A DNA stretch of 64,000 nucleotides from Octopus vulgaris. Taxonomy: Eukaryota. Below, piece by piece: positions 25,560 to 27,418 of this stretch (positions are counted from its first letter, which is position 1; every line of letters begins with the position of its first letter). Location of the stretch: contig OX597819.1 in NCBI GenBank assembly GCA_951406725.2, forward strand, positions 99,262,001 to 99,326,000, written 5' to 3'. The notes below the pieces were generated by a model. That model did no database searches. It was given only the letters and a program-made list of their open reading frames with translations, and was not told the origin of the DNA. The position numbers were made by a program, and so were the translations under genes.

Positions 25560-27418
25560 TTCAACAATTGAGGGTAAAATTAATTAATTAATCAATTTCA
25601 CCAAGTATTCAGTATACAAAGGGACCATTTAAGGCGAATTCAAATTATTACATTATATAAAAGGGCTTAGTAAAATAAATTACTTTGCTGCATACTGAAC
25701 TCATTAGAAATAGCAGCTAAAAAAAAACTTTTTTTAAAACTATCTCCAATACTTAAAGAAAACCTCTCTCATATAGTGTTTGCTCAATTCAACTCACGAA
25801 AGTATGGGGGTAGAGACATTAAAAAAAAATCAAATGCAAAGGTTATTTGAGAACGTACTCAATTAAATGTTTCAAGATTAGTCAAAATCGACACTTCTAT
25901 CATCAGCTCAGAACTCCCTGGTTTGGATTTGAAAACACTGAAAGTGGGAGCATACCCTTTCGGCCTGTTATCGCTTCTGAAGATCTGCTCAAAACTAACA
26001 GTGTTAGCAAATTCAAATATGCAAGCGAAAAATTTCTGCTCTCCCCCTTTCCACCAGCGTGGGTTAAAATCAGCAAACACTATGCTTTTTTCGGTAAAAT
26101 CCGAGGCATTATATAGAGAGAGATGAATTATAATTTCAACAATTGAGGGTAAAATTAATTAATTAATCAATTTCACCAAGTATTCAGTATACAAAGGGAC
26201 CATTTAAGGCGAATTCAAATTATTACATTATATAAAAGGGCTTAGTAAAATAAATTACTTTGCCGCATACTGAACTCATTAGAAATAGCAGCTAAAAAAA
26301 AACTTTTTTTAAAACTATCTCCAATACTTAAAGAAAACCTCTCTCATATAGTGTTTGCTCAATTCAACTCAAGAAAGTATGGGGGTAGAGACATTAAAAA
26401 ATCAAATGCAAAGGTTATTTGAGAACGTACGTTTCAAGATTAGTCAAATTTTTAACCCACGCTGGTGGAAAGGGGAGAGCAGAAATTCTTCGCTTGCATA
26501 TTTGAATTTGCTAACACTGTTAGTTTTGAGCAGATCTTCAGAAGCGATAACAGGCCGAAAGGGTATGCTCCCACTTTCAGTGTTTTCAAATCCAAACCAG
26601 GGAGTTCTGAGCTGATGATAGAAGTGTCGATTTTGACTAATCTTGAAACGTACGTTCTCAAATAACCTTTGCATTTGATTTTTTTAATGTCTCTACCCCC
26701 CCATACTTTCGTGAGTTGAATTGAGCAAACACTAAATGAGAGAGATTTTCTTTAAGTATTGGAGATAGTTTTAAAAAAGGTTTTTTTTTAGCTGCTATTT
26801 CTAATGAGTTCAGTATATGGCGGCAAAGTAATTTATTTTACTAAGCCCTTTTATATAATGTAATAATTTGAATTCGCCTTAAATGGTCCCTTTGTATACT
26901 GAATACTTGGTGAAATTGATTAATTAATTAATTTTACCCTCAATTGTTGAAATTATAATTCATCTCTCTATATAATGCCTCGGATTTTACCGAAAAAAGC
27001 ATAGTGTTTGCTGATTTTAACCCACGCTGGTGGAAAGGGGAGAGCAGAAATTCTTCGCTTGCATATTTGAATTTGCTAACACTGTTAGTTTTGAGCAGAT
27101 CTTCAGAAGCGATAACAGGCCGAAAGGGTATGCTCCCACTTTCAGTGTTTTCAAATCCAAACCAGGGAGTTCTGAGCTGATGATAGAAGTGTCGATTTTG
27201 ACTAATCTTGAAACGTACGTTCTCAAATAACCTTTGCATTTGATTTTTTAATGACTCTACCCCCATACTTTCGTGAGTTGAATTGAGCAAACACTATATG
27301 AGAGAGGTTTTCTTTAAGTATTGGAGATAGTTTTAAAAAAAGTTTTTTTTAGCTGCTATTTCTAATGAGTTCAGTATGCGGCAAAGTAATTTATTTTACT
27401 AAGCCCTTTTATATAATA
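25560..27418. mobile_element. Family B element: 565-bp unit, ~1.5 copies in one orientation then ~1.7 inverted copies (junction ~26448)
   Basis: 25560 is repeated at ~26135; 26449-27418 is the reverse complement with period 565 (26450 vs 27015). Embedded in (TA)n. Confidence 0.92.
26604..26666 (+). ncRNA. Type I hammerhead ribozyme, family B (second copy 27169-27231 +; insertion-disrupted copy 25842-25914 -)
   Basis: UGAG-CUGAUGA-UAGA..GUC..GAC..UCUU-GAAAC-GUAC-GUU^-CUCA. Palindromic AACGUACGUU stem III; U.U at the base of stem II is non-canonical. Confidence 0.75.

Follow-up and report, generated by a model that had tools for sequence, protein, structure and literature searches.

A hammerhead ribozyme repeat of Octopus vulgaris inserted head-to-head in (TA)n: a probable retrozyme bearing PLE-type insertion marks

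The window, by which we mean the whole 64-kb stretch of Octopus vulgaris DNA that was analyzed, contains at 25558–27417 an insertion built from copies of a 565-nt repeat unit of 34% GC. The copy at 26450–27014 serves as reference, and its positions are written U1 to U565. The insertion has two arms that point away from each other. The right arm, on the plus strand, consists of the full unit (U1–565, 26450–27014) followed by a partial second unit (U1–410, 27015–27417). The left arm, inverted and on the minus strand (25558–26448), consists of U183–565 and then U1–504. The 5' ends of the two arms meet at 26449, in a head-to-head junction of U183 with U1 (26446–26453), and their 3' ends both run outward into (TA)n—a tract at 25113–25557 on the left, which is the likely target, and another at 27418–29066 on the right. 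TA steps account for 98–99% of both flanks over 300 nt in each, and target-site duplications are not readable inside such tracts. A GAUUUU motif stands at the start of each arm, microhomology at the junction amounts to at most 1–2 bases, and the arms are 96% identical over 806 aligned positions. At its 3' end the left arm joins (TA)n at U504, 297 nt past the predicted ribozyme cleavage site, and the right arm joins it at U410, 203 nt past that site and within a TA-like patch; the interval from U410 to U504 is a 94-nt one-sided extension, or tail, of the left arm.

The initial annotation had described this region as a second hammerhead repeat family, 565 bp in unit length, arranged as a tandem plus an inverted tandem with (TA)n on both sides. 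Each of these statements holds: the arms run from 26450 to 27417 on the plus strand and from 26448 to 25558 on the minus strand, the plus-strand hammerhead cores at 26612 and 27177 are spaced 565 nt apart, and the 300-nt flanks are the near-pure TA repeats described above. Its bounds of 25560 and 27418 were right approximately; the exact ends are now placed at 25558 and 27417.

The hammerhead motifs are of type I, and a complete one is present in two consecutive plus-strand units, as in the tandem copies of retrozymes. Positions within them are numbered here by the standard scheme. Motif 1 occupies 26600–26670, with its CUGAUGA core at 26612–26618, the U.U at 26619/26644, GAAA at 26645–26648, a palindromic stem III at 26647–26656 and the GUU triplet at 26654–26656, and cleavage is predicted after 26656, that is, after U207. 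Motif 2 occupies 27165–27235, with its core at 27177 and predicted cleavage after 27221. CUGAUGA, GAAA and GUU are found in both plus-strand copies, together with the defining core positions (CUGANGA at C3–A9, G12–A14, A15.1–U16.1 and H17). The predicted stems comprise four pairs in stem I, 3+4 pairs in stem II above U10.1–U11.1, and only two pairs in stem III, or eight if the palindrome forms a duplex between two molecules. The minus strand retains one hammerhead with an intact core from 25906 but a 10-nt insertion that breaks the stem III palindrome (25845–25918), and one truncated hammerhead (26420–26448) that keeps the 3' half of stem II, GAAA, stem III and the cleavage site, and lacks CUGAUGA. 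The motif thus has the palindromic stem III, GUU and U.U-based extended stem II first reported for it, and the tally of two intact plus-strand copies with one disrupted and one truncated minus-strand copy also stands. Of 5000 dinucleotide shuffles, 16 gave a loose hammerhead pattern by chance. Searches of the window with Rfam gave no matches at the gathering score, and within 26450–27420 they gave eight weak matches, all below gathering and none to a hammerhead family.

Folding predictions bear on how such a ribozyme might work. The bare monomer hammerhead skeleton comes out at +3.0 kcal/mol, and the minimum-free-energy fold of the monomer mispairs the core, so that no hammerhead is predicted to form; the stem III palindrome duplex comes out at –9.8 kcal/mol. 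Misfolding of the monomer together with a stable palindrome duplex would be compatible with cleavage that depends on dimers, a behavior known from type I hammerheads of metazoans (PMC4209133). The U.U at the base of stem II had been singled out as an oddity, but it has precedents: U10.1–U11.1 is known at this position in natural hammerheads (PMC3088659), and the axolotl retrozyme hammerhead HHR_Amex2 has a U.U at the base of helix II, its monomer cleaving 22% in 1 h and its dimer much better (PMC7229834). Not every candidate behaves so well; among predicted retrozyme dimers of Xenopus, one of nine cleaved (bioRxiv 10.64898/2026.07.22.740005).

As a circle, the monomer is predicted to fold at –147.6 kcal/mol (z –5.8 against 100 shuffles), a stable fold of the kind expected of retrozymes, and the unit resembles them, too, in being non-coding and low in GC. 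Its longest sense ORF is 19 aa. The earlier statement that the unit contains no ORF needs qualification: the unit behaves as non-coding, but an antisense ORF of 99 codons is present on the minus strand at 27239–26940, a length reached in 14 of 1000 shuffles. We set this ORF aside as a protein gene. Its 26 variants (19 non-synonymous, two stop, five synonymous) indicate no conservation as protein, and searches gave no Pfam match and no usable match in the Atlas. An ORF combining reverse transcriptase (RT) with GIY-YIG, as an autonomous Penelope-like element (PLE) would have between its pseudo-LTRs, is absent from the element and none was seen in the window. A transcript reading through both arms is predicted to form a long hairpin, much as the annotation had it, though the stem is nearer 0.8 kb than 0.9 kb (773 pairs, 25654–26448 with 26632–27415) and closes a loop of 183 nt (26449–26631) that is left unpaired. 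The hairpin is best read as a by-product of insertion rather than as a designed structure, because PLE insertions in (TA)n have this layout as a rule, a partial tandem together with a 5'-truncated copy in inverted orientation.

The same layout recurs nearby. A head-to-head palindrome at 18262–18735, between (TA)n tracts, is a copy of a sister subfamily about 72% identical to the unit, with a 12-nt spacer (18446–18457) between its arms and no hammerhead core within it. The arms end at about U424 and about U510, leaving a tail of about 86 nt, and are identical over 186 nt but for one indel; because they are so nearly identical, the copy is a recent or a homogenized insertion. Both arms start at about U209–221, near the predicted cut after U207, a weak hint that a cleaved 5' end may have been copied, although the divergence of the subfamily limits what can be drawn from this. 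Farther along, at 36305–41460 on the minus strand, lies an array of eight full 535-nt units of another ribozyme repeat, family A. It carries a 50-nt head-to-head inverted arm (41461–41510) whose end lies about 30 nt beyond the 3' end of the array itself, there is a 29-nt duplication at the junction, and the circular fold of the unit has a z of –7.2 against 40 shuffles. Four of the eight units are identical and the others differ mostly by 1-nt indels, a near-uniformity such as one circle would give. A single family A copy, 94% identical to the array and without an inverted arm, sits between (TA)n tracts at 24603–25104, just left of the element; a CUGACGA core lies on its minus strand at 24699.

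All three multi-arm insertions of family A and of the 565-nt family (family B) found in the window are thus joined head-to-head, each with its two 3' ends running into (TA)n, and the tails measure 94 nt at the locus, about 86 nt in the palindrome at 18262–18735 and about 30 nt in the family A array. Homology between the two families was considered and is not supported: their local alignment score was reached in 214 of 300 shuffles and the global z is 2.1, in line with the annotation's view of the unit as largely unrelated to family A.

The surroundings are microsatellite-rich animal DNA and contain a good deal else. At 36440–36950 a family A unit is blurred with TA repeats (score 340, versus 66 on the other strand), which is probably a consensus or polishing artefact, possibly stemming from a length-polymorphic array; a similar blurred stretch at 27810–28060, entertained as a family A ghost, scored 39 against a shuffle maximum of 52, and lower still against family B, and was dropped. 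Two LINE copies, 29085–33500 and 41700–44640, are 99% identical and end in (AATC)n within TA tracts; they encode an APE endonuclease, an RT and an upstream ORF with a Torus-like match, and the first is interrupted by an N gap. Just upstream of the LINE, at 33535–35294, is an AT-rich complex tandem with nested periods of 16–89 nt and a 371-nt duplication. In two fold-back repeats, at 19472–19910 (90%, centered on a TA/CATA run) and 15762–16190 (83%), no hammerhead core was found. A decayed direct repeat (23134–23323 and 23742–23931; 74%, spacing 608) has a hammerhead-like core on the minus strand at 23930 and is possibly an older third family, and another core-like motif occurs on the minus strand at 22458. 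The first coding exon of a homeobox gene lies at 50160–50627. It matches a homeobox protein of Octopus bimaculoides, named ceh-28 by its source, at 96% identity across 93% of its length, the sole match among 226 candidates.

Beyond the window, contigs containing the 565-nt unit occur in 20 of 24 listed sequencing runs (eight studies, three organism labels), and they describe a dispersed, multi-copy family, as retrozymes are. Four runs were aligned to a single permuted unit (26720–27284) and yielded 3911, 201, 8757 and 41 contigs covering 30 of 30 bins; contig depth is not a copy number, and contigs show neither RNA ends, strand nor circles, and drop rare forms. None of the runs listed with the unit is given as RNA, and two, X3 and X17, are taken as RNA by guess only; no start or stop positions shared among contigs were tabulated. 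Counts of A>G and T>C were alike in the four runs (10/7, 7/7, 6/7 and 9/7) and are uninformative on editing. Exact motif scans found no loci in metagenome contigs and none in viral contigs.

Variation among the contigs tends to spare predicted pairs. Of 69 substitutions, the 40 best supported were compared with the circular fold: 23 fell at unpaired positions, nine kept a pair and eight broke one, where 17.2 pair-breaking changes would be expected (P 0.0009, 20000 permutations). Among these same best 40, none touched the 29 core and stem positions, which include both U of the U.U, against 2.0 expected, a result that is weak alone. The pattern supports, though it does not prove, selection on RNA structure; AT-rich loops may also mutate faster.

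The contigs also speak to where copies end. Loose ends that enter (TA)n numbered two among the 24 listed of 231, both from X17 (two of its six listed) and positioned behind 26950 and 26957, to either side of 26953, the equivalent of the left-arm end; none of the 18 listed for the other three runs enters (TA)n, and the U410 end is not marked by any of the 24. Taken with U504 at the locus and about U510 in the sister copy, the two X17 ends make a recurrent end point, U501–510, across four insertions. A further X17 loose end, before 27196, belongs to a divergent member under another organism label that has C for core U4 and keeps U10.1. The five joints listed for the four runs include one inversion: short-read contigs of run X2 contain an opposite-strand joint, 27103/27200, 3 nt from the equivalent (27197) of the breakpoint at the locus. 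The locus's own junction at 26448 is absent among the five. A go-back joint, 27281/26721, was discarded as evidence of circles; it reflects only the cut point of the permuted reference.

Set beside known systems, the element matches animal non-LTR retrozymes in the features that sequence can show, and it lacks those that define an autonomous PLE. With the retrozymes (PMC7229834; Li et al. 2026) it shares a short, non-coding tandem unit, with GC below 45–50%, one type I hammerhead per unit, a stable predicted circular fold and no LTR-retroelement features that we could see, and with axolotl HHR_Amex2 in particular it shares the U.U at the base of helix II. At 565 nt the unit exceeds the 150–450 bp of the retrozymes first described and falls within the 51–972 bp of the 2026 preprint. 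The host here is a cephalopod, and cleavage and circles are predicted. In the main texts of PMC7229834, the 2026 preprint and PMC7761336 no retrozyme is credited with a head-to-head arm, a tail or a (TA)n target; the word 'inverted' does not occur in the main text of the first, and in the other two it occurs in references only. In the literature outside subscription journals and Repbase we found neither cephalopod retrozymes nor retrozymes with inverted arms and tails, and the paper on O. vulgaris repeats (PMC13282606), supplement included, uses neither 'ribozyme' nor 'hammerhead'.

The marks missing from those texts are known from PLEs. The inversion had been flagged as an oddity, but among PLE insertions it is standard: these are reported to combine a partial tandem with a 5'-truncated copy in inverted orientation, a tail of 30–40 bp at one end only and a bias toward microsatellites (PMC8557442). 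PLEs with an endonuclease (Penelope/Poseidon, Neptune and Naiad; PMC8557442, PMC11167929, PMC3846280) share with the locus the partial tandem, the inverted 5'-truncated copy, the head-to-head junction, a one-sided tail, the (TA)n or AT-rich target and end points downstream of a hammerhead. Naiads favor (TA)n and occur in Octopus (PMC8557442), rotifer PLEs are mostly head-to-head (PMC3846280), and O. vulgaris is reported to have 190 PLE families, 31 of which show recent insertions and which together make up 6.83% of its genome (PMC13282606). The differences are threefold. The element has no RT or GIY-YIG ORF and hence is not autonomous; its tail is 94 nt rather than 30–40 bp; and its hammerhead has a full palindromic stem III, whereas PLE hammerheads are of minimal form. 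Non-autonomous PLEs of Chlamys, MRC1 for example, likewise form non-coding, head-to-tail, multicopy insertions, which have been attributed to a PLE (PMC8557442); unlike the octopus element these are algal, mostly lack hammerheads, and have 3' similarity to a known autonomous partner.

Putting the two likenesses together, we consider it probable that the 565-nt hammerhead repeat is a non-LTR retrozyme that is copied in trans by a PLE and inserted as head-to-head arrays in (TA)n. The layout of PLE insertions—partial tandem and inverted, 5'-truncated copy joined head-to-head—is found at the locus, in the sister copy and in family A, and the targets are the (TA)n or AT-rich tracts typical of PLEs. 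No PLE ORF was found within the 64-kb window. The element bears the marks of PLE insertion and does not code for the enzyme, so we favor a helper PLE working in trans, a reading drawn from the marks themselves. Besides the lack of a PLE ORF in the window, several observations count against the proposal: the locus's own junction is missing among the five listed joints, of which one is an inversion; two of the 24 listed loose ends are (TA)n junctions and none is at U410; the monomer misfolds its core, and its skeleton costs +3.0 kcal/mol; one of nine predicted retrozyme dimers cleaved in the 2026 preprint; the tail is 94 nt where 30–40 bp has been described; and the assembly has consensus artefacts 9 kb away.

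The sequence of events might be as follows. Tandem copies would be transcribed into multimers, in which two hammerheads could pair through their palindromic stem III, cut after GUU and free 565-nt monomers; a host ligase may circularize these, the cutting and the circularization both being suggested by the retrozymes of coral, mussel and axolotl. A PLE protein would bind multimeric or circular RNA and nick both strands of a (TA)n tract. Each 3' end would then prime reverse transcription internally, at U410 or U504, and copying would proceed across two hammerhead sites; the end points are observed, and priming there is what they suggest. The two cDNAs, finally, would be joined at their far ends, which would account for the observed head-to-head layout and the 94-nt one-sided tail. 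For several of these steps the purified PLE of the anole offers a biochemical parallel: it cuts AT-rich DNA on both strands and extends them, begins at two sites inside the RNA that delimit the tail, and works with RNA that is uncut (PMC11167929). Priming by microhomology alone, which we also considered, fits U410 but not U504, which is absent among the 12 best of 565 starts ranked by TA-like 8-mers.

Both arms run across two cut sites apiece, and so the template would have been either a circle read repeatedly or an uncut multimer. Allele differences between units may help to choose. Over U230–410, the first right unit has four private differences outside homopolymers and the other three segments have one each; for two of the first unit's four, U330 and the 3-nt indel, the contigs contain both states. 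Such a mixture favors a mixed multimer, or template switching, but polishing errors could mimic it: with consensus artefacts only 9 kb away (36440–36950), single-base differences between units may not be real. Tentatively, then, and with rather less assurance than we attach to mobilization by a PLE as such, we suggest that a PLE dimer, working from both ends of the cut (TA)n, primes on a protein-free ribozyme RNA at two fixed sites within it, joins the cDNAs head-to-head, and uses an uncut, mixed multimer as template.

How the inverted arm arose is the point on which the closest alternative differs. The same PLE-mobilized retrozyme could have been copied into a single cDNA that folded back and primed itself, as has been proposed for rotifer Penelope elements, where palindromic head-to-head junctions are so interpreted (PMC3846280). 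The sister copy at 18262–18735 fits this well, with one indel over 186 nt and a 12-nt spacer, and the family A arm is compatible with either route. The left arm at the locus is another matter: it reaches U504, overrunning the right-arm end at U410 by 94 nt, and four alleles of the first right unit that lie outside homopolymers (U286, U296, U330 and a 3-nt insertion at U368–370) are missing from it; on both grounds it cannot have been copied from the right arm by fold-back. If the template was a multimer or a circle, moreover, the second start (U504) falls 61 nt upstream of the stop of the first cDNA (U1), as twin priming predicts. A short gap is expected at twin-priming junctions. Two cDNAs primed from both ends of a cut are therefore the best fit at the locus as we read it, and fold-back, unlikely as the general explanation, fits the sister copy; both routes may operate. 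We hold it about equally unlikely that the repeat is a satellite, or a remnant of PLE terminal repeats, amplified and inverted at the DNA level by unequal crossover or break repair in fragile TA, reverse transcription playing no part in the inversion. In its favor, PLE termini have been proposed to amplify locally in the manner of satellites (bioRxiv 10.64898/2026.07.22.740005), the window has other fold-back repeats that lack a hammerhead, and the arms differ by some 4%; yet all three inversions share one polarity, 3' ends outward in (TA)n, the ends of four insertions cluster at U501–510, and the variants preserve a predicted RNA fold.

Mobilization by a PLE has also to be weighed against mobilization by a LINE, through the L1-type twin priming that gives rise to inversions (PMC2246262). 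A LINE with APE endonuclease and RT does occupy the same TA tracts (29085–33500 and 41700–44640), but the unit has no similarity to its 3' end (best local score 24) and neither a tail repeat, such as the LINE's (AATC)n, nor poly(A), and both arms start internally and cross unit boundaries; we think a LINE decidedly improbable as the source of the enzyme. Least probable of all, in our estimation, is that the family is real and the inversion at 26448 is an assembly artefact, the product of a chimeric long read or a mis-join. That the junction is missing from the joints listed for four runs would agree with this, as would the noisy consensus implied by the TA-blurred family A ghost at 36440–36950. 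A fold-back read, though, would mirror a single point together with its flanks, whereas these arms differ in phase (U183 versus U1), in length and in alleles, and their outer flanks differ as well. Since neither the arms nor their phases and flanks mirror one another, and since the layout recurs—in two more inversions in the window and once in short-read contigs—a chimeric read is unlikely.

The ribozyme and the class of element were already known; it is the anatomy of the insertion that bears on how retrozymes and PLEs integrate. That PLEs mobilize animal retrozymes has been proposed from co-occurrence and from the phylogeny of terminal repeats (bioRxiv 10.64898/2026.07.22.740005), and the manner in which PLEs make tandem and inverted insertions has been called undefined (PMC8557442). 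To the first question the locus and its two neighbors bring PLE insertion marks on ribozyme repeats that have no ORF; on the second, the locus suggests priming at two places, which lie 203 and 297 nt beyond the predicted cut. Both questions could now be put to the test, through a census of ends in one octopus assembly and through the in vitro PLE assay already published. As far as the literature outside subscription journals and Repbase goes, cephalopods are added to the hosts of retrozymes. If the more tentative reading above, of a PLE dimer priming at two fixed sites, is true, the locus would be direct genomic evidence that PLEs mobilize animal retrozymes, and the repeat would offer a minimal RNA substrate for testing the origin of the tandem, inverted and tailed layout of their insertions.
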